Part shown: in pieces, positions 4,221-36,273 of the stretch
How the letters are laid out: each line of letters starts with the position of its first letter
Numbering within the stretch: position 1 is the first letter of the stretch
IMG/VR virus record: IMGVR_UViG_3300017989_000120
Coordinates: 1-62,884 of that record
Reading direction: 5' to 3' (one strand)
Origin: a virus
Lineage: Duplodnaviria; Caudoviricetes
DNA length: 62,884 nt
Notes under the pieces: model-generated
Databases searched by the model: none
Told to the model about the DNA's origin: nothing
Seen by the model: the letters and a program-made list of their open reading frames with translations, nothing else
Position numbers and translations under genes: made by a program

Positions 4221-6689
4221 ATGGCATTTTCAACAACATCAAAATTTGTTCAGCTAACTCCATATTTGGTTATGGAGTACATGTATGCTGACCAGCCAAA
4301 TCCTGAAACATATTTTGTGAACACCGGATTTCCAGCTGTCGGATTCAACAAATTAGTTAATGGTGTATTTGAGGATGAAAACGGACAACCTTCTAATGAC
4401 ATCCAAATAATGAACTTGGATCAGGATCAATCGGTTACACAAAATACTAGGAATAACAGCGTTGTCCGTACCAACCAGAACACCTTTGTTACACTGGATC
4501 CGAGTTTGATAGTTCCTTATAATGACTTCAATTCGAATCTAACTGACACTGCAAATCTACAGATCACATTTCCTTCCAATATCCAAGTTATTTATGATTC
4601 CATAAGGTATCACATTTTAGCGGGATATAATCTAGATAATGTTGATGGACTGGTGTTGCAGGTACAATACCCTGATGTTGATAGTTCATTTGTTACCTTT
4701 TCTCAGATAAAGTTATCAAAGGGATCCTCTCAAACCTATACGTTAAATCCAAATCCAGTAACCATTGGATCTAGTATTTATGACAAGTATTATGAGGTAA
4801 AAGTTCCAAGCCTTGTTGATATGAACAACAAGTATGCTGTAGCAACCGCCCCAAATAAACCAAATACATTAGCTGGACTAACTAGTAAGAGTGGTAGAGG
4901 ATATCAGACTGCTGCTCCTATTAGGATCAATGCTTACGAGATTCTAAGCACTACTACCACTAATGGTTACGATACTTATGGGGTAGATATTTTGGCATCT
5001 CTATCGCTGGAGTCTACAGATCCATTTAAGAATATTGGTGCATATATTGCTCCTTCGGACCAGGGAGATTATTTCGAATATTTCGCAACAGATAATGGCG
5101 GATTCCCGGAGGATTTTATACTTTTCCAGAATTCGATTGGAAACAGTTATTATCTAAATCACTCAATCGAAACCCTGGAGCAGGTTGGTGGTGCATTGCT
5201 AAACACATCAAACTTTAGCAACATCCAAACAACTGCTTATGACGTCCCAAATCTTTTAAGGCCCATTGTTAGATATCCGCAGGTAGCTTCTTCTTTTACC
5301 TTAAGGTACACTATGACCTTGGTAAACAATAAAGATCAATCCAGATTGATTAGGATTGCAACTTATACCTCGACGGATGTCAGTAGGTATGGTGCTAACA
5401 TTCAGCCATTGCAGCTACAGGTTTTACCCCAACAACAAAAAATTTATAATAAAGTTGCTGCGGGAGTAAGCATTTCAGTACCCGCAAATAAAAATGTACC
5501 TAAGCAGATAACAAAGTTTTCTAATGTCTTTATCGACAGAACCTTGGTAAATACAACTCTTACCAATTTAATTGTTAATGGAACGACCTTAACTGAAGAC
5601 AATTCTAATGAGACTACCGAAACTGCTGCAGTTTCATATGGTGTGGGCAAAGCTTACATTACAGTTTCACCTTTTGATAACTATTATAAGTTTACCTTTT
5701 TCCAGAAGGCAAACGATGGAACTATAAGAAACATAGATCTTTCTTCCTCCGGGGAGTATTCCATGGTTTTCATCAATAACCAAAATAGGAAAGTTAGTGC
5801 TCCTTCTATAGTTGATAATAACATTGCTAAACCTGCTAAGGGAGAGCTTGCTTTCAAGGTTGATGAAGCGCTGTCAACTCAAATATTGCAATTCACTAAC
5901 AAGAAATTCTACATTTCTAACCGGCCAATAGTTGAATCTGAAACTGAATCTAACAATGTCAAGGTTTCTAGACTAAATAAGGTTGCATCTAAACTTGCAT
6001 CAAGGTCTGTTTCTTTAAATGATTCCATAACGGAATTAAGAGCAGAAAGTGTGAGGAGATCTGAGCAACAGACATCGGTAAAAATTGATACAGCTAGAAT
6101 TTCCTCTAAATCTTCCTCTGTGCTTTATTGGGGAAATTGGATTAGCGAGGGTGAAAGTGTTCCTACACCGAATGTGATTACAAACGAGGCTCTAACTAGT
6201 TCAAGAGGTGCGCTTGATGCTCCAACTGTCATAACACAAAGAACGCCTGCTGTTGGAAAGCCATCTTGGCAAAAGTTTGGATCCACCTCTGGTAATTCAC
6301 AGGCTAACACCACGTCGACAGTAAATCCAGGCAGAGGAAATAACCAAACTACTAACTTAAGTCCTTCCCAGCTTAGAAGTGCTATTGCATCCGATGTGCA
6401 AGGAAAAATAGAACTTGGGTGGAGCACACCCGACATCCTCTCATATTTCTTAGACCCTTCTGGAACAGGATATAAGCTTTATGGTGGAATCACAAAAGAA
6501 GTTTTTGAGCAAGCAGTAGCTGGTATATTTGGCAGAGAAGATTTAGCACTACTTCTAAATTACGGAAACACCTCTTCAGGCAGAACAAACGGTGGAAGTG
6601 CATCTCAGGGGGGATCTAATAGTAATCAGACTGGAAGCGACAGCGGTAGTCCAAACAGGGGTCCTCAATTCCCAACAGGTCCTTCATAA
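4221..6689 (+). CDS. Large hypothetical protein, probably virion structural
   Basis: 822 aa N/T/S-rich beta-type ORF within the structural region; low-complexity C-terminus. Confidence 0.5.
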   Translation: MAFSTTSKFVQLTPYLVMEYMYADQPNPETYFVNTGFPAVGFNKLVNGVFEDENGQPSNDIQIMNLDQDQSVTQNTRNNSVVRTNQNTFVTLDPSLIVPYNDFNSNLTDTANLQITFPSNIQVIYDSIRYHILAGYNLDNVDGLVLQVQYPDVDSSFVTFSQIKLSKGSSQTYTLNPNPVTIGSSIYDKYYEVKVPSLVDMNNKYAVATAPNKPNTLAGLTSKSGRGYQTAAPIRINAYEILSTTTTNGYDTYGVDILASLSLESTDPFKNIGAYIAPSDQGDYFEYFATDNGGFPEDFILFQNSIGNSYYLNHSIETLEQVGGALLNTSNFSNIQTTAYDVPNLLRPIVRYPQVASSFTLRYTMTLVNNKDQSRLIRIATYTSTDVSRYGANIQPLQLQVLPQQQKIYNKVAAGVSISVPANKNVPKQITKFSNVFIDRTLVNTTLTNLIVNGTTLTEDNSNETTETAAVSYGVGKAYITVSPFDNYYKFTFFQKANDGTIRNIDLSSSGEYSMVFINNQNRKVSAPSIVDNNIAKPAKGELAFKVDEALSTQILQFTNKKFYISNRPIVESETESNNVKVSRLNKVASKLASRSVSLNDSITELRAESVRRSEQQTSVKIDTARISSKSSSVLYWGNWISEGESVPTPNVITNEALTSSRGALDAPTVITQRTPAVGKPSWQKFGSTSGNSQANTTSTVNPGRGNNQTTNLSPSQLRSAIASDVQGKIELGWSTPDILSYFLDPSGTGYKLYGGITKEVFEQAVAGIFGREDLALLLNYGNTSSGRTNGGSASQGGSNSNQTGSDSGSPNRGPQFPTGPS

Positions 6690-8121: not shown

Positions 8122-8148
8122 AGCTCCCTGGTAATGGGGAGCTTTTTT
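8122..8148 (+). terminator. Intrinsic terminator
   Basis: AGCTCC...GGAGCT hairpin followed by a T-tract. Confidence 0.7.
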
Positions 8149-8186: not shown

Positions 8187-8858
8187 TTGAAAACACTAGT
8201 CGGGATAGACTTTTCCCTTAATTCACCAGCATTCTGCATTTTGAGAGATAATCAATTCACTTGGGGATCTCTGACCAGAAGTGATCGTACAGAAGATTCC
8301 TTAAAAAAGAATTCTAAAAAACCTTACTCTGTCTTATCTGAGGATAAATCCGAAGATTATGTCCTAATGTTTATGTCAAAGGATAAAATGCCAGACGACT
8401 ACTCCGAGAGAGAAAGGATAAAAATAGATTATTTCCAAGAACTTGTCGATGTGTTTTGGTCCGAGATTGAGAACCTCTGTGGTGGAGATGACATTGTGGT
8501 AGCTATGGAAGGACTCAGCTTTGCTTCGAACGGAAATGCTTTAATAGATATTTCCATGGCAACTGCTCTTCTAAGGAAAAAAATAGTGGACCACACAGGA
8601 AGTGATAATTTCTATGTGTATTCTCCCACATCTGTGAAAAAGTTTGCTTACAAGGGAAATGCAAAAAAACACGAACTCTATAATTCTTTAATAGAGCACA
8701 GATTTCCAGAAACTAATCTGAAGTCATTCACTACTATTTTAGAAGAAAACAAGGATGAATGGATAACTCCTTCTGGCAACGTAAATAAGCCACTTGACGA
8801 TATTATTGATTCAACTTGGATATGTTTGTTTTTGCATGACTCAATCAAAGAAGATTAA
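8187..8858 (+). CDS. RuvC-like Holliday junction resolvase (RNase H fold)
   Basis: VGIDFSLNSPA, AMEGLSF, YSPTSVKKFA..GNAKK, DDIIDS motifs. Confidence 0.8.
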   Translation: MKTLVGIDFSLNSPAFCILRDNQFTWGSLTRSDRTEDSLKKNSKKPYSVLSEDKSEDYVLMFMSKDKMPDDYSERERIKIDYFQELVDVFWSEIENLCGGDDIVVAMEGLSFASNGNALIDISMATALLRKKIVDHTGSDNFYVYSPTSVKKFAYKGNAKKHELYNSLIEHRFPETNLKSFTTILEENKDEWITPSGNVNKPLDDIIDSTWICLFLHDSIKED

Positions 8859-9567
8859 TATACTCATTCCTCTTGGCGGTGCTGGAAGGAGATTTACTGA
8901 AGTAGGGTATAAGCAGGTAAAGCCTTTTATAGATGTAAAAGGTGAAACTATGATTAGGTCAGTTATCAAAAACCTGAACCATAGAGATGCACACTTTATA
9001 TTTGTTGTAAATGAGGAGTATATCTCCCCTAAGGAGTTTAAGTCCCATATAGAAGATGTGGGGATTTCCTATGAAATTTTCTCAACCCCAATCTTGACTC
9101 AAGGACCTGCTTCAACAGTTCTAATTGCCAAAGAAGCTGTAAATAATGAGGTCCCTCTCATTGTTGTAAACTGTGATCAAATTATCCTGGATTTCGATTT
9201 GGATCATTTAATGAACTTTGCAAATTCAACGGGATGTGATGGATTGTTAGGATGTTTTCTTTCTTCCTCTAAGAAGAACAGCTACGTAAAACTTGATCCC
9301 AATGGTGAGGTTTGTGATGTAAAGGAGAAGATTGTTATTTCCAACATAGCTACAAATGGATTGCATTTTTGGAAGCATGGTGAATATTTTGTCTCCAGTG
9401 CAGAACAGATGATAGAATCTAATGACAGATACAACAACGAATTTTATGTTGCCCCCACCTACAATTATCTCATAAAAGATGGAAAAAAAATATTGCCTTT
9501 CTTCTATAATCTTCACTTTCCAATAGGAACCCCGGAGGACCTGGAAAGATTTTTAACGATAGTGTAA
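8836..9567 (+). CDS. Sugar-phosphate nucleotidyltransferase (GT-A, dTDP-glucose pyrophosphorylase-like)
   Basis: ILIPLGGAGRRF..GY..VKPFIDV, TQGPASTV, NCDQ, EFYVAPTYN, IGTPEDL; ATG 8836 preferred over the ORF-track start. Confidence 0.8.
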   Translation: MTQSKKINILIPLGGAGRRFTEVGYKQVKPFIDVKGETMIRSVIKNLNHRDAHFIFVVNEEYISPKEFKSHIEDVGISYEIFSTPILTQGPASTVLIAKEAVNNEVPLIVVNCDQIILDFDLDHLMNFANSTGCDGLLGCFLSSSKKNSYVKLDPNGEVCDVKEKIVISNIATNGLHFWKHGEYFVSSAEQMIESNDRYNNEFYVAPTYNYLIKDGKKILPFFYNLHFPIGTPEDLERFLTIV

Positions 9568-9891
9568 ATGGAGGTTTTTAGAATAGAAGAAATGAAAGAT
9601 GGATGGTACGCTGGTAATTTTTCCCCGTCAGCATACCAAACAGAACAATTTGAGATTTGCTACAAAAAGCATTTTAAGGGTGAAAAATGGCCAAAGCATT
9701 ATCACAAAGAGGCAGACGAAATTAATTATCTTAGATCGGGTAAAATGATAATACAAGGCAGGGAGCTGAGTGCTGGAGATATATTCATCTTGAGAAAAAA
9801 CGAAATTGCTGATCCTGTTTTTTTGGATGACTGCGAGGTCTTTATTGTAAAATCACCTTCTGTACCGGGTGATAAATTTGTGATTGAATGA
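9568..9891 (+). CDS. Cupin-domain protein
   Basis: GWYAGNFSP, HYHKEADEINY..SG cupin metal motif, KSPSVPGDK. Confidence 0.75.
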   Translation: MEVFRIEEMKDGWYAGNFSPSAYQTEQFEICYKKHFKGEKWPKHYHKEADEINYLRSGKMIIQGRELSAGDIFILRKNEIADPVFLDDCEVFIVKSPSVPGDKFVIE

Positions 9892-11123
9892 TTAGCATTT
9901 TTAAGGATAGGAGTGAATTCGATATTGCTGACTATTTTGTGGTTAGGTATTATTTGGAAGCTAAAACTTCTTTGAGAGATGCCTCTTGGAATTTGGCTAT
10001 CGGTCAAAGTATAGGTAACCCGACGAATCGCAGTGAATGGGAAACTGATGAAATGTTTGAAAATCACAGTTGTTTCATTCTTGCTTCTGAACAAGATCTT
10101 AGCCAAAAAAAAGATGGTGAAGTTGAAATTGCTTTCCCCTTGGCAAACCTTAATTTGGAGGAGGATGGGATATCACAGATCCTTTGCCATATAGCCGGTG
10201 GACAAGTCGATATAGAAGAGGTGAAGCAGTGTCATGTTTTGGATATTGTACTGCCTCAAGAAGTTGAAGACTCTTTTTCTTTGAAACCTGCTTACGGGAT
10301 TAATGGATGGAGAAGATTCAACGGAGTTGATGACAAGCCTTTTCTAGGTGGAATAGTTAAGCCTAAAGTAGGCATGTCCCCTGAGGTATTGCTAGAAGCT
10401 GTTAAAGAGATGGTTTATGGTGGGGTCAACTTTATTAAAGAGGATGAGCTCCTAGCAAACCCTTCTCACTGTCCGCTAGAACAAAGAGTGCCTTTAATTT
10501 CATCTTGGTTAAAAGAAAATGCTCCTGATGTGATCTATTGTTTCTGTATAAATGGTGATAGCCCATATGCTTTGGAAAGAGCTAAATTTGTAGCAGATAA
10601 TGGCGGAAATGGTATTCACATTAATGTTTGGAGTGGATTAGGCGTATATCGTGCTATCAGAAAGCAAAATCCTAATCTTTGGATACACTTCCAAAAAAGT
10701 GGTGATAAATTTTTTACGGATAGAAGATCTCCAAACCATATTTATTGGCCTGTTTTATGCAAGATTGCTGGATGGTCTGGGGTTGATTCTATTCATGCTG
10801 GAATGATTGGTGGTTATATGAACCAGGACGAGGAAGAGATTCGGGATACCCTAAGGGTTCTTTGGAACTATAACATTGTACCTGCTCTTAGTTGCGGAAT
10901 GCATCCGGGTCTAGTCCAGTACATTAACGAAACAATTAGCAGTTTTGATTGGATGGCTAATGTTGGTGGAGCAATGCACGGACATCCACAAGGCACAAGG
11001 GCAGGTGCACTGGCAATGAGACAGTCCATAGACCAAGACTATGATCATCCAGAATATACAATAGCAATAAAAAAGTGGGGAAACAAATGTTTTTCTGAAG
11101 ATTTGGATTACAGAATTTTCTAG
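9888..11123 (+). CDS. RuBisCO-like protein (form IV RLP)
   Basis: GGIVKPKVG (K175/K177), GVNFIKEDE (carbamate Lys motif), DSIHAG, PALSCGMHPG, GGAMHGHPQG; His294 and Lys334 equivalents are substituted. Confidence 0.9.
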   Translation: MISIFKDRSEFDIADYFVVRYYLEAKTSLRDASWNLAIGQSIGNPTNRSEWETDEMFENHSCFILASEQDLSQKKDGEVEIAFPLANLNLEEDGISQILCHIAGGQVDIEEVKQCHVLDIVLPQEVEDSFSLKPAYGINGWRRFNGVDDKPFLGGIVKPKVGMSPEVLLEAVKEMVYGGVNFIKEDELLANPSHCPLEQRVPLISSWLKENAPDVIYCFCINGDSPYALERAKFVADNGGNGIHINVWSGLGVYRAIRKQNPNLWIHFQKSGDKFFTDRRSPNHIYWPVLCKIAGWSGVDSIHAGMIGGYMNQDEEEIRDTLRVLWNYNIVPALSCGMHPGLVQYINETISSFDWMANVGGAMHGHPQGTRAGALAMRQSIDQDYDHPEYTIAIKKWGNKCFSEDLDYRIF

Positions 11124-11124
11124 C

Positions 11125-11559
11125 ATGAGGCTTATATCGCATAGAGGAAATCTAAACGGACCGAACCCATCAAGGGAAAATAGACTGGATTACATACAAG
11201 AAGCATTGGATATGGGCTATGATGTTGAGATTGACGTCTGGATATCTGATACCTCCATATACTTGGGTCACGATTTACCGGAAACTAAAGTTCCCCTTGA
11301 ATGGCTGCTGGAAAGGTCAGAAAAACTTTGGATCCACTGCAAAAACATAGCAGCTATGGTTTATCTTAAGGAGTATGGTGAACTCAACGTTTTTTGGCAC
11401 GAAGCGGATAAGATTACTTTAACCTCCAGATCATTTATCTGGGCTTTTCCTGGTATGCAGCCAATAAACAAAAGCATTGCTGTTTTGCCCGAAATGTATG
11501 ACGAACCAGTAGACAATTGCTGTGGGGTTTGCTCAGATTACATCTCAAACTATCGATGA
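11125..11559 (+). CDS. Short glycerophosphodiester phosphodiesterase (GDPD/PLC-like) protein
   Basis: ISHRGN...EN...DVEIDVW...LGHD...WIHCKN...CSDY. Confidence 0.75.
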   Translation: MRLISHRGNLNGPNPSRENRLDYIQEALDMGYDVEIDVWISDTSIYLGHDLPETKVPLEWLLERSEKLWIHCKNIAAMVYLKEYGELNVFWHEADKITLTSRSFIWAFPGMQPINKSIAVLPEMYDEPVDNCCGVCSDYISNYR

Positions 11560-12338
11560 AAGTAGCATTACTCCTTCCTGGTCAAATAAGAGATGCAGAT
11601 AACACTTTTCCGAACATCAAGAAAAGTATATTGGATAAATTTGACGTTGATGTTTTTATTTCCACCTGGAACCCCTCGAAAGAAATTAAAAACTCACTGC
11701 ACGCGGATACCAAAGATCTTGAAGATCGTATAAACATAGATGCTCTTATGCGTCTTTATTCTCCTGTCCAGATTAGGACTGACAATTTCGATAGTGATGG
11801 TATACAAAAAATCATAGATAGATCTTGGTCCTATGAATCCTTTGGCCCACAGACTGGAGAAATAAGTCCAGTTTCTGTTTTTCTCATGTGGTACAAGATA
11901 AAACAATCTTTCATGTTAATGAAAGACTATGAGGAGATCTTAGGAGAAAGATATGATTATGTCATAAAAGGAAGGATGGACATCCAGATATTGAATGCTC
12001 TAGAACTGGACAAGAATCCCCAAAAGATCTGTGTCCCTCCTGGTTTTGATTGGAAAGGTGGTGTCAATGATATTTTGGCTTGGGGAGGTAGGGATGCAAT
12101 GGAGCATTATTGCAAAATGTTTGATTACTTGGATGAATATATTTTGTCTGGGATCTACTTTCACCCAGAAACTTTATTAAGGCACCATATAGAAAGTTCT
12201 GAATTTATTTTATCTAGGCCTTTTGTTAAGGTGATGCTCCGGGATAAGAATGTTTGGGAGACCGAGGTGTCAGATAATGAAATAGATGAAAAAAGTTTTG
12301 GATATATAGAGTCTAGGGGAAACATTTGGGACACTTAG
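11556..12338 (+). CDS. Glycosyltransferase-like hypothetical protein
   Basis: MKVALLLPGQIR, DVFISTW, YDYVIKGRMD, NDILAWG, HPETLL; ATGA overlap with the previous gene. Confidence 0.55.
   Translation: MKVALLLPGQIRDADNTFPNIKKSILDKFDVDVFISTWNPSKEIKNSLHADTKDLEDRINIDALMRLYSPVQIRTDNFDSDGIQKIIDRSWSYESFGPQTGEISPVSVFLMWYKIKQSFMLMKDYEEILGERYDYVIKGRMDIQILNALELDKNPQKICVPPGFDWKGGVNDILAWGGRDAMEHYCKMFDYLDEYILSGIYFHPETLLRHHIESSEFILSRPFVKVMLRDKNVWETEVSDNEIDEKSFGYIESRGNIWDT
12301..12308 (+). promoter_or_regulatory. GATATATA putative promoter
   Basis: In the 3' end of the previous gene, upstream of the SSB gene. Confidence 0.4.
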
Positions 12339-12375: not shown

Positions 12376-13326
12376 ATGAGTAATTTAGACATTTTCAATT
12401 TGGATGCGGAAGCATTCGTAACGAAAACAAAGAAGGAGAATTCAGAGGGAACAGAATTTTACAAACCATATCCGGAAAACGGAAAGGATGGAGTTTATAA
12501 ATCGCTGATCCGTTTTCTCCCCAACCACGTCGATCCGACGAAATCAAAAATCCACAAGTACTACGTTTATCTAAACGATCCAACAACGGGAGATGGATTC
12601 CCAGTTGACTGTCCGTCAACAGTAGGAAAAAAATCTGTACTTAAGGATATGTTCTGGAAGTTGAAAAATTCACATTCAGCTGCAGATCAAGAGCTATCAA
12701 GAAGTTTTTCTAGAAAGGAAGACTATTACTCTCTCATCCAAATTGTACAGGATAAGCACAATCCTGAACTTGAGGGTAAAATTATGATCTTCAAATTTGG
12801 ACGCAAGCTAAATGATATGCTCGAAGCACAGCTTAAGCCTGAGTATGGAGATTCGTGCAACCCTTACGACCTTTTCGAAGGTAAACTTTTCTCAGTTCAC
12901 ACAAGAAAAGTTGGTGAGTGGAACAACTACGATCTTTGTTCATTTGTTGGAGATAGAACTCCTATCGAAATCAATGGCAAAAAGATGGAGAAAAATCAGG
13001 ATGACATGAATGCAATCATGGAGTACCTTAAAACAGGTCCTGACAACCTCACCCAGTTTGAATATAAAGATTGGGACGATAACACTACTCAAAGGGTTAT
13101 GAATGTGATTAAAAACACAGTTCCAGATGGAAGGCTAGTTAATGAGGTTTTAGGAGGTGCAAACCAGACTTCGACCCCATCGTCATCTAGCTCAACGAAT
13201 GACTTTTACAACGAGGCTTCATCAACTAAAGTAGGCTCTGAACCTGCAAAGGAAGATAAAGGCATTAGTCAGCCATCAGCACCTGAAACATCTTCGTCTC
13301 TAGACGACCTATACGCAGATCTCTAA
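12376..13326 (+). CDS. Single-stranded DNA-binding protein (T4 gp32-like)
   Basis: IRFLP, NPELEGKIMIFKFGRKL, NPYDLFEG, WNNYD, acidic tail SLDDLYADL. Confidence 0.85.
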   Translation: MSNLDIFNLDAEAFVTKTKKENSEGTEFYKPYPENGKDGVYKSLIRFLPNHVDPTKSKIHKYYVYLNDPTTGDGFPVDCPSTVGKKSVLKDMFWKLKNSHSAADQELSRSFSRKEDYYSLIQIVQDKHNPELEGKIMIFKFGRKLNDMLEAQLKPEYGDSCNPYDLFEGKLFSVHTRKVGEWNNYDLCSFVGDRTPIEINGKKMEKNQDDMNAIMEYLKTGPDNLTQFEYKDWDDNTTQRVMNVIKNTVPDGRLVNEVLGGANQTSTPSSSSSTNDFYNEASSTKVGSEPAKEDKGISQPSAPETSSSLDDLYADL

Positions 13327-28924: not shown

Positions 28925-31396
28925 ATGTACGTAACTAAGAGAGACGGATCCAAAGAAGCGGTAAGATTTGATAAGGTTTCTAATCGCGTAAAAAAGATGA
29001 CTTATGGTCTAAACAACGACTTTGTTGATTGGATGGGTATTTCACAAAAGGTAATCGCTGGAATATATGATGGCATTTCAACGGGAGAATTAGACAACCT
29101 AGCTGCTGAAACTGCAGCATCACTTATTCCAAGCCATCCAGATCATTCCATTCTGGCAGCAAGGATTGCCATTTCTAGATTGCACAAATCAACAAAGAAG
29201 AAATTTTCTGAGACCATTGAGGATTTATATTCCTATATTGATCCTGAAACTAATAAGCCTGCAGGACTTATTGGAGATGAAACCTATGAGGTCGTAATGA
29301 AGAATAAGAACAAATTTGATTCTGCCATTATACATGATAGGGATTTCAACTTTGAATATTTTGGATTCAAAACCCTTGAAAAAAGTTACCTCCTTAAAAT
29401 GCATGGAATTCCAGCAGAAACTCCACAACACATGTACATGCGTGTTGCCGTAGGTATCTGGGGAGATGATATTAAAAATGCTCTCAAAACATATGAGCTT
29501 CTCTCAACTCATATGATGACACATGCAACCCCAACTTTATTTAATTCTGGTACTAAGAAACCACAGCTATCCTCTTGCTTCCTTTTAACTATGCAGGAAG
29601 ATTCCATTCCTGGAATCTACAAGACTCTTTCTGATGTTGCGATGATTTCCCAGAATGCCGGTGGTATTGGTCTTGCTATCCATAACGTAAGATCAACTGG
29701 TTCTTATATCAGAGGTACGAATGGTAAATCCAATGGTATTGTACCAATGCTTAAAGTATTCAACGAAACTGCTAGATACGTTGATCAAGGTGGGGGTAAA
29801 AGAAAGGGATCCTTTGCTATTTACTTAGAGCCATGGCACGCCGACGTTGAGGATTTCTTAGATCTGAGAAAGAACACAGGTAAGGAGGAAAGAAGAGCAA
29901 GAGACCTGTTCCTTGCTCTCTGGGTTTCTGACCTTTTTATGGAAAGGGTAGAAAAAGATGAAATGTGGTCTTTATTCTCTCCATCCGAGGTACCTGGACT
30001 TCATGAAGTTTATGGGCAGAAGTTCAATGAAATGTACATAGCAGCTGAAGAGGCTGGGAAGGCAAAGAAAACCATTAAAGCGAGAGAACTCTGGGGAAAG
30101 ATTATCGAGTCTCAAATTGAAACCGGAACACCCTACATCCTTTATAAAGACTCTGCTAATAGAAAGTCAAACCAGCAGAATTTAGGGACCATCAAATCTT
30201 CAAACTTATGCTGTGAGATCATTGAATACACAGACAGGGACGAACAAGCAGTTTGTAACTTGGCCTCTATCCCAGTTAACAAGTTCCTGAAGTCTACTGA
30301 TGCAAGAACATCGAAGATAACTAGGGGTAAGTGTGAGGTCGATCATGATTATCTATATGAAGTAGCATACCAAACTGCTGTAAACTTGAATAAAGTAATT
30401 GATGTAAATTTCTATCCTACTGTTGAAACCAGGAGGTCCAATATGAGACACCGTCCAATTGGTATTGGAATTCAGGGATTGGCCGATCTTTATGCAATGA
30501 TGGGTATTCCATTTACATCTGACGAGGCAAGAAAAATTAACTCGGAATTATTTGAGACAATTTATTTTGCATCAATGACAGCTTCTAAAGATCTTGCTAA
30601 GAAATTTGGAGCTTATGAAACGTTTGAAGGTTCTCCGTTAAGTGAGGGTAAATTCCAATATAACTTATGGCAGGTAAACGACGAGGATCTTTCTGGAAGA
30701 TGGGATTGGAAAAAACTTAGGAAGGATGTTATGAAGCATGGGGTTAGAAACTCTCTTCTTCTTGCACCTATGCCAACAGCTTCAACAGCTCAAATTATGG
30801 GTAACAACGAAGCGTTTGAACCTTTTACCTCTAATATTTACACTAGAAGGACACTAAGTGGCGAGTATGTTATAATCAACAAGCACCTAGTTTCTGATTT
30901 GATTTCTCTAGGACTTTGGAATGAGGATATGAAGAATATGATTATCATCCACAAAGGATCTGTACAGAACATTCCAAACATCCCTGACGACATCAAGGAG
31001 ATCTATAAGACAGTTTGGGAGATCAAACAGAAGGATCTTATTGAAATGTCTGCTGACCGTGGCAAGTTCATTTGTCAATCACAATCTCTGAACTTGTTTA
31101 TAGAAGGAGTAAATGCTGCTAAACTTACTGCAGCCCACTTCCATTCATGGAAGCTTGGTCTTAAAACAGGCATGTATTACCTAAGAACAAAAGCTGCTGT
31201 AGATGCACTTTCTGGTCTTGGTATAGATACGAGCAAATACAAAAAAGTCGAGGAGAACCCAACTCCAAAGGCAATTGTGGTTGAGCAGAAAATTGTGTCT
31301 GCAAACGAAGACCTAAAAGCCCTGGCAGAACAAACTATGAACGATCTTTCTTGTAGCTTGGACAACCCAGATGATTGTTTGTCTTGTGGTTCTTAA
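28925..31396 (+). CDS. nrdA: Ribonucleotide reductase class Ia alpha subunit
   Basis: ATP cone VTKRDG, TPTLFN, QLSSCF, SNLCCEI, VCNLAS, PTAST, C-terminal CLSCGS. Confidence 0.95.
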   Translation: MYVTKRDGSKEAVRFDKVSNRVKKMTYGLNNDFVDWMGISQKVIAGIYDGISTGELDNLAAETAASLIPSHPDHSILAARIAISRLHKSTKKKFSETIEDLYSYIDPETNKPAGLIGDETYEVVMKNKNKFDSAIIHDRDFNFEYFGFKTLEKSYLLKMHGIPAETPQHMYMRVAVGIWGDDIKNALKTYELLSTHMMTHATPTLFNSGTKKPQLSSCFLLTMQEDSIPGIYKTLSDVAMISQNAGGIGLAIHNVRSTGSYIRGTNGKSNGIVPMLKVFNETARYVDQGGGKRKGSFAIYLEPWHADVEDFLDLRKNTGKEERRARDLFLALWVSDLFMERVEKDEMWSLFSPSEVPGLHEVYGQKFNEMYIAAEEAGKAKKTIKARELWGKIIESQIETGTPYILYKDSANRKSNQQNLGTIKSSNLCCEIIEYTDRDEQAVCNLASIPVNKFLKSTDARTSKITRGKCEVDHDYLYEVAYQTAVNLNKVIDVNFYPTVETRRSNMRHRPIGIGIQGLADLYAMMGIPFTSDEARKINSELFETIYFASMTASKDLAKKFGAYETFEGSPLSEGKFQYNLWQVNDEDLSGRWDWKKLRKDVMKHGVRNSLLLAPMPTASTAQIMGNNEAFEPFTSNIYTRRTLSGEYVIINKHLVSDLISLGLWNEDMKNMIIIHKGSVQNIPNIPDDIKEIYKTVWEIKQKDLIEMSADRGKFICQSQSLNLFIEGVNAAKLTAAHFHSWKLGLKTGMYYLRTKAAVDALSGLGIDTSKYKKVEENPTPKAIVVEQKIVSANEDLKALAEQTMNDLSCSLDNPDDCLSCGS

Positions 31397-31410
31397 ATAA
31401 ATATACTACG

Positions 31411-32070
31411 ATGGATAAGGTACGTAATTTTGAAAACTTTATTGCTATAAACGAAAGAGTTATCCCAGATAAACAAGGAGAGATCCTTGTTATTCTGGGT
31501 CCTCCTGGATCTGGTAAAGGAACAGTTTCAAAAAAACTTGTCGAACGGAATAATTTCACCCACATTTCTACTGGAGAACTAATTAGGAATTCTGATGACA
31601 AGGAGCTAAAGAAAAAAATAGAGAAGGGAGAGTTTATACCAGATAGGGTGATGGTTCGAATGCTTAGAAAGGCACTCGGTAAGGCTGACCTCGAGCGAGG
31701 TATTATTCTTGACGGATTTCCTAGAAACGTTAAACAGATAAAATTATTGGATTCTCTCCTGGGAAAACTCGGGGTTGGTCTCAGTCATGTAATTTATTTG
31801 GATCTGGAAGAAGATAAGGCCAAGCAGAGAATCATGAAAAGGGCTGAAAAGGAAGACAGAGCTGACGATAAGAATCCTGAAATCATATCAAAGAGATTCA
31901 AGGAGTATAAGGAGAAAACCCTTCCCCTTGTTAAAAAATACAAGAAGAGTAGGAAACTAGTTAAAGTCGATGCATCTAAGAAAATCGAAAGCGTTTACAA
32001 GCAGTTGCTAGACAAGATAGGAATTTCTTACAAACCTGAGGATGAGAAAGGGAAAGAAAAAACTTCCTGA
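31411..32070 (+). CDS. adk: Adenylate kinase with CTS-like N-terminal extension
   Basis: GPPGSGKGT, HISTGELIR, ILDGFPRN, R.DD; extension MDKVRNFENFIAINE. Confidence 0.9.
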   Translation: MDKVRNFENFIAINERVIPDKQGEILVILGPPGSGKGTVSKKLVERNNFTHISTGELIRNSDDKELKKKIEKGEFIPDRVMVRMLRKALGKADLERGIILDGFPRNVKQIKLLDSLLGKLGVGLSHVIYLDLEEDKAKQRIMKRAEKEDRADDKNPEIISKRFKEYKEKTLPLVKKYKKSRKLVKVDASKKIESVYKQLLDKIGISYKPEDEKGKEKTS

Positions 32071-33220: not shown

Positions 33221-34507
33221 ATGGCTTCTAAAAGCAAAAAGAAAAGAGCAAAAAAGGGCTCTAATAAAAACTCCACAAAAAACCATAAACCCAGCGGTCA
33301 AGCAATTGCACAACCCCCTGTAGATTTAACAAAGCAAGACATTTCATTGTGTCTTGTAATGATTGTAAAAGATGAGGGTGACACAATTAGAAGGTGTCTT
33401 ACGCAGGTTGCTCCATTTATTTCATATTATGTAATAGTTGACACCGGGTCTTCTGATAACACCACAGAGGAAATTAATTCCACCATGGAATCTCTTGGTA
33501 TTGAGGGTGAAGTTCACGAAAGACCGTGGGTAAATTTCGAGGTAAATAGGACTGAAAGTCTAGAACTTGCAAAGGGTAAGTGTGATTATAGGTGGATTAT
33601 CGATGCGGACGATACGTTCCAAGTAGCAAATCCAAGTGTAAATCCATTTAGTAATTTACCTAAAGAAAAGGTTGATTGCTTCCAAATTTTATATAAACTT
33701 AATAATCTTCAATACCACAGAGCACAGATCGTCAGGTCTGACCAGGATTGGGTTTATAAAGGCGTATTGCACGAGTACTTAGATCTCCCTGGAAAAGAGC
33801 AATTAATTCAGTACCAGATTCCAGCGGATAAGTGTTATGTAAATGCAGATATCAGTCCGCTTAAAAGAGCAAATTCGTTGGAAGAAAAATATGCTAAAGA
33901 TGCTGAGATCTTAGAAAAAGCATTGGAGGATGAACCTGCCAACACGAGGTATATGTTCTATTTGGCCCAAAGTTATCGGGATTCAAACCAGAAGTTAAAA
34001 GCTATAGAAGCTTATGAGAGAAGAATAGAAGCAGGCGGATGGGAAGAAGAGGTTTATTATTCCATGTACATGATTGGTAAAATTAAAGAGCAACTAGGCA
34101 GACACCCCGATGAGGTTATACAAGCTTATTCAAGGGCATGGGAATATAGACCGGAAAGACTTGAAGCAGTTTTCCATTGTATGAGAAAATTAAGGGAAAG
34201 AGGCAGATGGGTCCTTTCATTTACTTACGGAAATATGGCTGTCAAAAACCCCGGAACCTCTGATATTCTTTTTGTTGAACCCGAGGTTTGGCAGTGGAGA
34301 CTTTTAGACGAATATTCTCTTGCAGCTTTCCATACAGGCAATCCAGAACTGGCCTTTGAAAAAATGGATGCAGTGGTCCGTATGGATTTCTTTGAGCATT
34401 TACCCGCTAATGAGAAGGAAAGAATTCTTAAAAATCTAGATCATTATAGGCAAGCAGCAGCGAAAAAAGCTGAGGTCTTGAAATCTAAGGAAGCTACTAC
34501 CGCTTAA
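33221..34507 (+). CDS. GT2 glycosyltransferase with TPR repeats
   Basis: CLVMIVKDE, VDTGSSDNT, IIDADD, GVLHE, RYMFYLAQSY, TPR helices. Confidence 0.85.
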   Translation: MASKSKKKRAKKGSNKNSTKNHKPSGQAIAQPPVDLTKQDISLCLVMIVKDEGDTIRRCLTQVAPFISYYVIVDTGSSDNTTEEINSTMESLGIEGEVHERPWVNFEVNRTESLELAKGKCDYRWIIDADDTFQVANPSVNPFSNLPKEKVDCFQILYKLNNLQYHRAQIVRSDQDWVYKGVLHEYLDLPGKEQLIQYQIPADKCYVNADISPLKRANSLEEKYAKDAEILEKALEDEPANTRYMFYLAQSYRDSNQKLKAIEAYERRIEAGGWEEEVYYSMYMIGKIKEQLGRHPDEVIQAYSRAWEYRPERLEAVFHCMRKLRERGRWVLSFTYGNMAVKNPGTSDILFVEPEVWQWRLLDEYSLAAFHTGNPELAFEKMDAVVRMDFFEHLPANEKERILKNLDHYRQAAAKKAEVLKSKEATTA

Positions 34508-34518
34508 TAAAGCTATCG

Positions 34519-36273
34519 ATGTCCAAGATATTGTCAATATCTGCTGTTGCACACGATTGTGGAATAGCTTATATCGAAGATGGTATTATCAAATATGTTT
34601 TTGAGGAAGAAAGGTTTAAAAGGCTGAAGGGTATTTTTAATCAATTTGCCTTTCCTCATCTTTCCCTTGAAGCATTTGAAAGAGAAACTGGAATAACTCC
34701 TTTTGATAAGGATGTTATAGTTGTAATGCCAAAAGCGGTCCTTTGTGGTCTGGATTATTTGGAGTCTATACTTGAAGTAAAGGACATCTACTTATACGAT
34801 CACCATTTTTCACATGCTTGTACAGCTTATTTTCTTTCTGGGTTTGAAGAGGAGACCCTGGTTTTTAGTTATGACGGAGGTGACTCAAACGGGATAGAGG
34901 AAGATGTTCTCAGTAAGGATGTTCTTCAAAAAATCCGAGATCAAGGTCTCCCAAACAGGGAAACCGAAATTCCAGAGGATGAATACATTAAAGTTGCTTC
35001 CACGGCAAAAACAGATTCGGATTTACCCGATCAACTAAGAATTTGTAACGGCTCTTGGTGGTTTAAAGAAGAACATACACTAAGTAGTAACAGGACATCA
35101 ATCCATGTAGGGAAAAATTCCCAACTAGAGCTAAAATATAAAACTAAGGGATTTGATTCGGTTGCTTCCCTGTGGAATTCTTTTTGTGTGATGAATAATA
35201 TGATAGGAGGGAAAGACGAGGGTAAAATCGTAGGTCTTGCTTCTCAAGGTAAATTCAGCCAAGAAATTTTCGATTCTGTAGGTGATTTTTTTAAATTCGA
35301 CGGCGATCTTAGATGGAAGCATTACTATACTGTGGAAAGCTATTTCCAATCTTTGGACCTGAAAAATCCTGAAATAAAAAAGGACGCAGCCTATATGATC
35401 CAGTATTTTACTGAGTCCTATTTTCTTGAGGTGATACAACATCTTAAATCTCAATATCCGTCTTGCAAAAAATTAGCACTTGCTGGTGGTCTATTTTCAA
35501 ACGTAAAGGTAAACCAAAAGATAAACGAGCTTTCTGAATTTGATGAAATATTTATTGCACCTGGGATGACTGATGGAGGTCTTGCTCTCGGGGCTGCGAT
35601 AGCTAAAGCGAATGAGCTTGGTGAATTCAAAGTGCAGATGATAAATAATGTTTTCTGGGGAAATAAAACCGAGATCCCAGCAATACCCAACAATGTAGAA
35701 CGTGTGGAGCTTAACTTTCACGATATTGCTAATTATCTTGACGAAGGTAAAGTTGTGGGTGTGTTCGCGAATAGAAGAGAGTGGGGACCAAGAGCTTTGG
35801 GTGGAACATCAATTATGTTTGATCCAAGAAGAAATGACGCTCAGGAATACGTAAACAGGAGATTGAACCGGAACGAGGTTATGCCTTTCGCACCCGTTGT
35901 CATGCAAGGGTTTGAATCTATTCCCTTCCATTGTTATAAATCGAAGTATGCATCACAGTTTATGACCATATGCTACGACGTAAAAGATGAGTGGATTAAT
36001 AGAATACCAGGGGTTATAAACACATACGATAATACTGCAAGGATCCAGATTGCTCGAAAAGATAACCTTCCATTTTTCCCCATACTTGAGTCTTTCTATG
36101 AAAAAACTGGGATACCCCTTCTTATGAACACATCGTTCAACGTGCATGGAGAACCAATAATTAATACCTCCGAGCAAGCACTAAATCACTTGCTAGAAGG
36201 GGTAGTTGATATATTAATAGTGCAGGATAGGGTGTATAAATTAAAATCTGATACCTCCATATTCGATACATAG
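34519..36273 (+). CDS. Carbamoyltransferase (NodU/CmcH family) 1
   Basis: HDCG, EEERFKR, HHFSHA, DGG, EGKIVGLA, LAGGLFSNVKVN, EWGPRALG, MPFAP, NTSFNVHGEPI. Confidence 0.9.
   Translation: MSKILSISAVAHDCGIAYIEDGIIKYVFEEERFKRLKGIFNQFAFPHLSLEAFERETGITPFDKDVIVVMPKAVLCGLDYLESILEVKDIYLYDHHFSHACTAYFLSGFEEETLVFSYDGGDSNGIEEDVLSKDVLQKIRDQGLPNRETEIPEDEYIKVASTAKTDSDLPDQLRICNGSWWFKEEHTLSSNRTSIHVGKNSQLELKYKTKGFDSVASLWNSFCVMNNMIGGKDEGKIVGLASQGKFSQEIFDSVGDFFKFDGDLRWKHYYTVESYFQSLDLKNPEIKKDAAYMIQYFTESYFLEVIQHLKSQYPSCKKLALAGGLFSNVKVNQKINELSEFDEIFIAPGMTDGGLALGAAIAKANELGEFKVQMINNVFWGNKTEIPAIPNNVERVELNFHDIANYLDEGKVVGVFANRREWGPRALGGTSIMFDPRRNDAQEYVNRRLNRNEVMPFAPVVMQGFESIPFHCYKSKYASQFMTICYDVKDEWINRIPGVINTYDNTARIQIARKDNLPFFPILESFYEKTGIPLLMNTSFNVHGEPIINTSEQALNHLLEGVVDILIVQDRVYKLKSDTSIFDT

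Follow-up and report, generated by a model that had tools for sequence, protein, structure and literature searches.

The DNA analysed here is a single virus record of IMG/VR (IMGVR_UViG_3300017989_000120), taken over its whole length of 62,884 bases and referred to below as the window. Its CheckV completeness is 22%, which makes the window a fragment of a phage of about 250-300 kb. On the + strand, five genes lie between a RuvC-like open reading frame (ORF; 8187-8858, phrog_159) and gp32 (12376-13326; Pfam gp32, 47.8 bits). They encode a nucleotidyltransferase (NTase; 8836-9567, 243 aa, Pfam NTP_transferase, phrog_3980), a cupin (9568-9891, 107 aa, cupin motif 1, phrog_24762), a RuBisCO-like protein (RLP; 9888-11123, 411 aa, Pfam PF00016 and PF02788), a miniature GDPD/PI-PLC-like barrel designated g4 (11125-11559, 144 aa, phrog_34507) and a GT-A-fold transferase-like, DUF7796-like protein designated g5 (11556-12338, 260 aa, phrog_13607), the last two being characterized by AlphaFold2 (AF2) folds. 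The junctions are, in gene order, TAAATG, ATGA, a 1-nt gap and ATGA, and the NTase ORF overlaps the upstream RuvC-like ORF by 23 nt. These ORF calls and junctions agree with a first-pass annotation, made from the letters alone, which had described five tightly coupled phage genes and named their products; Pfam bears out the NTase and the RLP, and motif, invariance and fold the other three. The phage origin is borne out by the IMG/VR record, by gp32 and by a UvsW-like helicase, for which the best relatives, cultured or curated, are uncultured huge phages (43%) and Lak phages (34%), and the backbone is that of a large T4-like phage. The only convincing terminator-like hairpin (8122-8143) lies upstream of the operon. 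Sigma-70-like sites are not enriched in the window (20, against 15.4 +/- 4.2 in shuffled sequences), and the T4 late-promoter word TATAAATA occurs 5 times against 5.3 expected, with none near the operon. On balance, the comparisons below favor reading the five genes as a variant of a sugar-activation cassette in which the RLP would serve as the front end that feeds an activated sugar donor. The cassette is widespread in viruses and occasionally cellular.

The RLP matches RuBisCO_large (PF00016) with 112.3 bits (cut-off 30.1) and RuBisCO_large_N (PF02788) with 24.2 bits (cut-off 20.7), and 99 RuBisCO or RLP sequences of the PDB are matched at E <= 1e-3, which places it in the RuBisCO large-chain superfamily. 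Residues were mapped by alignment to PDB 2cwx (a Pyrococcus form III structure), in spinach numbering, and invariance was scored over 63 members of the clade, whose identity to the RLP of the window ranges from 51% to 100%. Carboxylating RuBisCO relies on the catalytic residues E60, N123, K175, K177, K201, D203, E204, H294 and K334. In all 63 sequences K175, K177, K201, D203, E204, H327, S379, G381, G403 and G404 are kept, and a clade-specific Q61 is likewise invariant. Replacements that are themselves invariant in the clade affect E60 (Gly), T65 (Asn), W66 (Pro), N123 (Gly), H294 (Gln), R295 (Lys), K334 (Tyr) and G380 (Cys), and H298 is Asp in 58 of the 63 sequences, including that of the window. 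The first-pass annotation had listed the KPK and KEDE motifs, H327 and the phosphate-binding Ser/Gly loops as retained, and Gln/Lys at 294/295 and Tyr at 334 as altered; all of this stands, except that G380 is Cys, and the divergence goes further than was listed, to the Asp at 298 and the N-domain losses of E60, T65, W66 and N123. Altogether there are 96 positions at which 62 or all 63 of the sequences agree, which implies strong purifying selection and a remodeled pocket around an intact carbamate/metal centre. Because E60, N123, H294 and K334, four of the listed catalytic residues, are lost, the RLP falls outside the carboxylating RuBisCOs (forms I-III), and its clade, judged by these residues, is non-carboxylating. 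It appears to be conserved and enzymatically intact, and would be a functionally new variant in a protein clade already described.

Every NCBIfam equivalog stayed under its cut-off with this protein, including rubisco_III (169 bits vs 497), PRK04208 (145 vs 438), PRK13475 (97 vs 489), the two MtnW models (114.7 vs 409 and 82.2 vs 513.6) and OiaX (124.6 vs 700). A maximum likelihood tree of 120 sequences (IQ-TREE, LG+G4, quick search, SH-aLRT support, unrooted, no bootstraps) was built from the window, 13 viral sequences, one Beckwithbacteria sequence, 99 full-length representatives at 50% identity and six annotated plasmid references (one form I, two OiaX and three RLPs adjoining four-carbon acid-sugar kinases); labelled form II, Photo and DeepYkr references were not part of it. 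One clade of 36 rows (SH-aLRT 99) contains the window, all the viral sequences and that of Beckwithbacteria (locus L089). None of the six annotated references belongs to it, nor does any of the 20 representatives, drawn from outside this clade, that were typed with NCBIfam; of these 20, two reach the form III cut-off, four are closest to MtnW, one is closest to OiaX and the others are unassigned. Three of the MtnW-like rows (P0337, P0359 and P0331) group in a different clade with support 99, the fourth (P0287) also lies outside the clade of the window, and the two annotated OiaX references are separated from it by a branch with support 99. By score and by clade, therefore, the RLP is neither an MtnW/YkrW enolase nor an OiaX, and the expectation that it would lie outside the methionine-salvage clade held. 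Its occurrence in a phage record, its grouping with Beckwithbacteria and its position outside the other RLP clades agree with membership of the 'form IV-like' clade of Jaffe et al. 2019, the two clades being equated by these features and not through that study's own sequences. The text passages of that paper describe about 80 such phage and Beckwithbacteria sequences and call their function unclear (PMC6389311).

Relatives of the RLP are numerous, with 2348 protein clusters confirmed at E <= 1e-3 among 4485 candidates, and with 121 of 127 candidate stretches of IMG/VR confirmed from a single-sequence query and at least 337 of 596 by profile. Some distant relatives have unusual architectures. 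P0314 (583 aa), outside the clade of the window, joins a TIR domain to a complete distant RLP (Pfam TIR_2 3e-13, RuBisCO_large 1e-45), a defence-type domain that is unexpected on an RLP. P0280 (726 aa) and P0286 (742 aa), which are unrelated to the clade of the window, have an IF-2B-family domain, presumably of the ribose-1,5-bisphosphate / MTR-1-P isomerase family, fused to a RuBisCO large chain, and look like a fused two-step enzyme of the AMP pathway.

The NTase matches NTP_transferase (PF00483; 3.8e-13, 50 bits vs a cut-off of 21.2), the virus-rich subfamily PHROG 3980 (8e-57) and PDB 4evw, a 'nucleoside-diphosphate-sugar pyrophosphorylase' (5e-13), and its N-terminal G-x-G-x-R loop is readable as LGGAGRRF; domain model and loop together identify it as a sugar-phosphate nucleotidyltransferase. 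It reaches no substrate-specific NCBIfam equivalog, the best being HddC with 34.8 bits against a cut-off of 300. The cupin contains the canonical motif G(X)5HXH(X)4E(X)6G, with H44, H46 and E51 invariant in 45 sequences, and these metal ligands and motif 1 place it in the cupin superfamily; Pfam Cupin_2 scores 16.8 bits, under its cut-off of 27.2, phrog_24762 matches at 2e-30, and motif 2 has no conserved histidine. Its PDB profile matches are YxaG, small Cupin_2 proteins, 7zvm ('mannose-6-phosphate isomerase') and KdgF, so that by sequence it is a small single-domain metal cupin, and the solved structures closest to it are small metal cupins of a generic kind.

No Pfam or NCBIfam family matches g4, which is assigned to phrog_34507 at 1.5e-29. 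Its AF2 model (pLDDT 97.5) is a small barrel, and the best PDB folds are the GDPDs 1v8e, 2o55 and 1o1z, at weak values (E 3.5e-3 to 1e-2, TM 0.41-0.59), together with PLC X-domains. Invariant in 47 sequences are H6, R7, G8, E35, D37, H49, H71, K73, H92, C136 and D138. A GDPD is a full (beta/alpha)8 barrel with an H-R ... E-x-D ... H catalytic set, and H6-R7-G8, E35-x-D37 and H49 of g4 presumably correspond to that set. For g5, Pfam DUF7796 scores 17.6 bits, under its cut-off of 27, and a search of a protein atlas returned only clusters named 'DUF7796' or 'capsular polysaccharide biosynthesis protein family'. The AF2 model of g5 (pLDDT 89.6) retrieved BoGT6a, glycogenin, ABO GTA/GTB and LARGE1 with Foldseek (probability 1.00, E 3e-7 to 2e-5, TM 0.41-0.47), and the modelled fold is thus predicted to be nearest to those of GT6/GT8-like retaining GT-A enzymes.

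The partnership of these genes was followed in 80 viral loci with an RLP, in which tblastn finds the NTase in 77, the cupin in 74, g4 in 63 and a gp32 flank in 19. Since gp32 is matched in only 19 of the 80, the linkage is not merely that of a shared phage backbone. The 79 loci with an RLP ORF were dereplicated at 97% RLP identity to 60, and partners were counted within 6 kb of the RLP: the NTase is present in 58 of the 60 loci, the cupin in 56, g4 in 46, g5 in 31, NTase, cupin and g4 together in 43, and all five genes in 23, the absences being upper bounds because contig ends cut some loci. The first-pass annotation had proposed conservation of the gene neighborhood as a check, and the counts for NTase and cupin bear it out. 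Gene order and strand differ between lineages. The genes are also fused: NTase and cupin form one chain in 12 of the 60 loci, the only two longer relatives found (P0241 and P0242) are single chains of RLP, NTase and cupin, P0244 is an RLP-NTase fusion, and P0298, which is probably truncated at its end, is a g4-RLP fusion.

Further genes near the RLP encode methyltransferases (35 of the 60 viral loci), SDR epimerase/dehydratases (23), DegT aminotransferases (7), GT2 glycosyltransferases (6), RXYLT1-like glycosyltransferases (6) and members of the UDP-glucose/GDP-mannose dehydrogenase-like family (6). One genome scan for the RLP locus gave four loci, namely the same phage binned in a metagenome-assembled genome (MAG), one locus without partner genes, and two in bacteria of the candidate phyla radiation (CPR). 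The latter two MAG contigs (Patescibacteria and Beckwithbacteria) carry NTase(-), g4, cupin and RLP; the RLP of the Beckwithbacteria MAG is 51% identical to that of the window, and five glycosyltransferases, three methyltransferases and a B12-radical-SAM protein surround its NTase-g4-cupin-RLP genes. Giant-virus-MAG names are attached to 5 of the 80 loci. On two such contigs unassigned proteins occur near NTase-cupin (L075:4762-7386 and L072:4851-6353), in the form of an 874-aa protein with about 520 unassigned N-terminal residues before its NTase-cupin part and a nearby 500-aa paralogue without a family; a protein atlas search with the N-terminal half of the 874-aa fusion returned nothing usable.

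Neither the operon (blastn) nor the RLP (tblastn) has a match in 50,697 phage records, from which the record of the window itself is perhaps excluded, and the RLP is thus found in none of the cultured phages among them. Homologues of the NTase, g4 and cupin occur in 22, 17 and 3 cultured phage records, nearly all of them Synechococcus myoviruses, whose sister cassettes keep NTase, cupin, g4 and g5 in clusters rich in glycosyltransferases. In these phages the NTase has other fusion partners. In Bellamy it is fused to RpiB (PF02502, 3.9e-32), and a 385-aa gene of SynMITS9220M01 equals the Bellamy fusion in length and position and matches the NTase, its RpiB part being assigned by length and position alone; the order in SynMITS9220M01 (NTase::RpiB, cupin, g5-like, g4) makes it the cassette of the window with RpiB replacing the RLP. 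In S-SKS1 the partner is RibB, a 3,4-dihydroxy-2-butanone-4-P synthase (PF00926, 5.4e-65), and in S-CAM9 it is a HAD_2 domain, with genes of B23 and DSL-LC03 that are similar in length and position only. Thirty IMG/VR loci with an NTase::RpiB fusion include the cupin in 29, g4 in 26, g5 in 26 and the RLP in none, and g4 directly follows the cupin in 23 of them. The NTase::RibB fusion is present in 11 viral loci, with g5-like genes in 7 and cupin or g4 in none. HAD_2::NTase fusions make up 113 of the best 120 longer NTase relatives, some sources naming them beta-phosphoglucomutase-like, and in 2 of the 60 RLP loci (L010 and L061) a HAD::NTase gene lies directly upstream of cupin-RLP.

In a FastTree phylogeny of 86 NTase domains, the RibB-fused domains nest among RLP-adjacent ones (support 95), the HAD-fused ones make up a clade together with some RLP-adjacent ones, and the RpiB-fused ones form one long branch on an unresolved backbone, a topology that implies a single NTase family which swapped partners repeatedly. 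The RLP is accordingly one interchangeable front end, alongside RpiB, RibB and HAD, and the description of the operon as built around the RLP is not supported, the parts that are constant across the variants being the NTase, g4 and g5-like genes. Some 4-5 kb upstream of the RLP, six loci (L023-L026, L031 and L034) have a free-standing RibB that shares 53-54% identity with the S-SKS1 domain, and also a second NTase and a small HAD-like gene beside NTase-cupin-RLP, so that two front ends coexist in one lineage. RpiB and RibB both act on ribulose-5-phosphate, and the ancestral substrate of RuBisCO is a ribulose phosphate too. These shared substrates suggest a common theme, the conversion of a ketopentose phosphate of the pentose-phosphate pathway before nucleotide activation.

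The pathway that we infer, including its substrate class, order of steps, product and acceptor, builds on the observed gene order, fusions, residue conservation, folds and clade placement. In the recurring back end, the NTase would join a sugar phosphate to a nucleotide, with g4 as a putative phosphodiester enzyme and g5 as a putative transferase, and in the front end of the window the RLP and the metal cupin would prepare the sugar phosphate. By means of its carbamylated lysine and Mg2+, the RLP would take a proton from a ketopentose phosphate of the pentose-phosphate pool and, having lost the residues for CO2 addition, would reprotonate the intermediate elsewhere, giving an isomer or epimer, in the slot that RpiB occupies in the sister cassette; it is probably an enolising isomerase acting on a pentose phosphate. 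The cupin may then carry out a second metal-dependent isomerisation or tautomerisation, after which the NTase would make the nucleotide-linked donor and g5, g4 or both would install the sugar on the acceptor. Two sub-versions can be distinguished. The donor may be formed from a classical sugar-1-phosphate, which is favored by the HAD_2 fusions and by the precedent of arabinose in other phages, or it may carry its nucleotide on a non-anomeric phosphate, as the donors CDP-ribitol and CDP-glycerol do. The second sub-version would account for the lack of a kinase and a mutase, for the constant presence of the GDPD-like enzyme and for the transferases of RXYLT1-like type. The first-pass suggestion of an anabolic role for the RLP in sugar activation fits these comparative data, namely the linkage, the fusions, the glycan-type neighbors and the non-salvage clade, while nothing speaks for the branched sugar that it had considered as a product.

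Several observations weigh against a sugar-activation cassette fed by the RLP. RibB homologues (6 loci of one lineage) or RpiB homologues (1 locus) are present in the flanks of 7 of the 80 RLP loci. The equivalence of RpiB and RLP is read from gene position, and both cassettes could yield different products. By fold comparison g4 is weakly assigned to the GDPDs (E 3.5e-3 at best), and its 144 aa cover about half a barrel. No DxD motif is present in g5, in which R140 and D142 are invariant instead. The cassette of the window contains no kinase, mutase or HAD gene, which also speaks against the sugar-1-phosphate sub-version, and a HAD_2 search found no match in the window and three related records (42-46% complete); no gene here thus accounts for an anomeric phosphate, and the step would have to come from g4 or a host enzyme, or the NTase would have to act on a phosphate that is not anomeric. 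Finally, RLP and cupin families also pair in methionine salvage, so that the chemistry may be of the salvage type here. Strict mutual exclusivity of the RLP with RpiB and RibB had been considered as well, and is ruled out by the seven loci with both.

The acceptor of the predicted donor was considered separately, and a second genome of the same phage bears on it. This genome (L086) is the 64-kb contig CALAZP010000190.1, binned in an 'uncultured Saprospirales' MAG, which is either a binning artefact or a hint to the host. Its nucleotide identity to the window is 90-100% in nearly all 200-base blocks, and falls to 64-80% in a hypervariable segment (10680-12260) that spans the 3' third of the RLP gene, g4 and g5, with 88% just before and 89% just after the segment and a return to 97-100% in gp32. 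Protein identities are 90.5% for the RLP, 78% for g4, 65% for g5 and 99% for gp32, and L086 has an insertion of about 280 bases between NTase and cupin (position 9558 of the window). The segment looks like a local allelic replacement, or recombinational cassette exchange, as at loci under diversifying selection.

In the lineage of the window the cassette is surrounded by replication genes and has a single transferase, a setting that would fit the modification of DNA or of the virion; most other lineages, and the CPR bacterium, have it inside multi-enzyme glycan clusters. That the cassette makes a donor for hypermodification of phage DNA, with g5 as a DNA glycosyltransferase, is a rival to the sugar-activation reading on the acceptor only and not on the chemistry, and we regard it as unlikely. 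The five genes of the window sit among genes for RuvC-like, gp32 and helicase proteins with neither polymerase nor flippase, the RLP 3' end, g4 and g5 vary between the two genomes as in an arms race, a pathway from ribulose-5-P through NDP-arabinose to DNA is described in T4-like phages (PMC13326640, in the passages available), and a ThyA-family gene is present in a related 118-kb record. The multi-glycosyltransferase, methyltransferase and epimerase clusters around most other loci are, however, typical of polysaccharide synthesis, as are those of the CPR bacterium; a search for ThyA-family genes came up empty in the window and in two other related records, none of them complete, and the known DNA arabosyl- and glucosyltransferases resemble GT-B in the account given in that source (PMC13326640), whereas g5 is GT-A-like. 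Because the records are 22-46% complete, the searches for ThyA, HAD_2 and GT2 do not settle the acceptor.

A methionine-salvage-like pairing of enolase and dioxygenase, serving an auxiliary salvage or catabolic purpose, for example the disposal of a 5-deoxy or 5-methylthio pentose, which would merely lie near sugar genes, appears very improbable. The RLP and cupin do mirror MtnW and MtnD, and also the RLP and cupin methylsulfurylase of Rhodospirillum rubrum, the cupin has a His-His-Glu metal site, and sister cyanophage clusters hold a class II aldolase (MtnB superfamily), HAD phosphatases and kinases. Against this stand the scores with the MtnW models (115 and 82 bits vs 409 and 514) and the separate clade of the MtnW-like rows, the fusion of the RLP to an NTase, an enzyme that has no role in salvage, and a module that contains no MtnA, MtnK or MtnP gene. 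A carbon-fixing viral 'rbcL' auxiliary gene is hardly credible, for although JGI labels many close relatives 'ribulose-bisphosphate carboxylase large chain', with viromics papers, in the passages available, counting such genes as auxiliary metabolic genes for CO2 fixation (PMC12607003, PMC12615777), this is contradicted by the replacements at E60, N123, H294 and K334, invariant in the 63 sequences, the models of forms I, II and III all stay under their cut-offs, the module has no small subunit or phosphoribulokinase gene, and the first of these papers itself grouped its viral gene with 'RbcL-like' proteins (PMC12607003).

Returning to the sugar-activation reading, a bolder form of it can be stated, to which we give a low probability. 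The RLP clade would catalyse a biosynthetic reaction new for the RuBisCO fold, whose substrate would be a ketopentose phosphate, free or linked to a nucleotide, and whose product would be an unusual pentose of the keto, deoxy-diketo or epimeric kind. The NTase would activate this product through a non-anomeric phosphate, in the manner of CDP-ribitol, and the GDPD-like enzyme would install it as a phosphodiester-linked decoration on glycan or DNA. If true, both the donor class and the type of transferase would be new, and they would extend over phages, giant-virus bins and CPR bacteria. RLPs have so far been assigned solely to enolate chemistry of salvage or catabolism, and a part in the biosynthesis of an activated sugar would add a functional class to a much-studied fold. 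Phage RLPs as such are already known, and for their 'form IV-like' clade, which is common, no function has been put forward since 2019. The literature searched contained no paper combining 'RuBisCO-like', 'nucleotidyltransferase' and 'cupin' and no functional study of the phage clade, and relative to that literature the cassette, the fusions, the front-end swaps and the biosynthetic reading are new. The logic of the cassette offers a cheap in vitro test, and the cultured cyanophages with sister cassettes offer a genetic handle.

Two further regions of the window were recorded. At 33221-36273 a GT2-TPR protein (428 aa) is directly followed by a NodU/CmcH-type carbamoyltransferase (584 aa), and the pair adjoins the large subunit of a class I ribonucleotide reductase (28925-31396) and an adenylate-kinase-like NMP kinase (31375-32070); it may be a second module for sugar or nucleotide modification. 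An 822-aa ORF at 4221-6689, without a Pfam family and with a C-terminal third rich in Ser, Gly and Asn, lies upstream of baseplate-like genes and is probably a structural or fibre protein.

Among known systems, the MtnW/YkrW enolase with the cupin dioxygenase MtnD, and the R. rubrum RLP with the cupin methylsulfurylase, are cases in which an RLP enolises a ketose-1-phosphate derivative beside a metal cupin; these RLPs belong to another clade, and their salvage pathways involve no NTase or transferase. The type II phosphomannose isomerase/GDP-mannose pyrophosphorylase has NTase and cupin domains in one chain, like the NTase-cupin fusions described here, with a larger cupin of the PMI type and no RLP. 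The RLPs of OiaX/apiose and acid-sugar catabolism use the fold on sugar-acid phosphates and gave the top matches in plasmid records, all at <=30% identity, but they form a separate clade and have catabolic neighbors, for example four-carbon acid-sugar kinases. The form IV-like RLPs of Jaffe et al. come from the same setting, large myovirus-type phage contigs of IMG/VR, are divergent from all RLPs and group with Beckwithbacteria; an NTase-cupin-g4 neighborhood, fusions and front-end swaps do not appear in the text passages of that paper, its supplementary maps apart (PMC6389311). The phages RB69, DLP3 and HY126 convert ribulose-5-phosphate (Ru5P) to arabinose-5-P, the 1,5-bisphosphate, arabinose-1-P and NDP-arabinose, which in RB69-like phages leads to arabinosylated 5-hydroxycytosine in DNA, as set out in the passages available of PMC13326640. 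As in the proposed cassette, a phage-encoded isomerase and NTase there turn a ketopentose phosphate into a donor for a phage transferase; by the same passages they differ in using a SIS-type arabinose-5-P isomerase, a kinase and a HAD phosphatase, in having no RLP, cupin or GDPD-like protein, and in a MurU-like NTase that is fused to a kinase (PMC13326640). The cyanomyoviruses Bellamy, SynMITS9220M01, S-CAM9, S-SM2, S-SKS1, B23 and DSL-LC03 have no RLP and instead fuse the NTase to RpiB, RibB or HAD_2, and with the window they share the NTase (27-43% identity), g4 (37-48%), the cupin (41-42%) and g5-like genes, in the same order and in glycosyltransferase-rich clusters.

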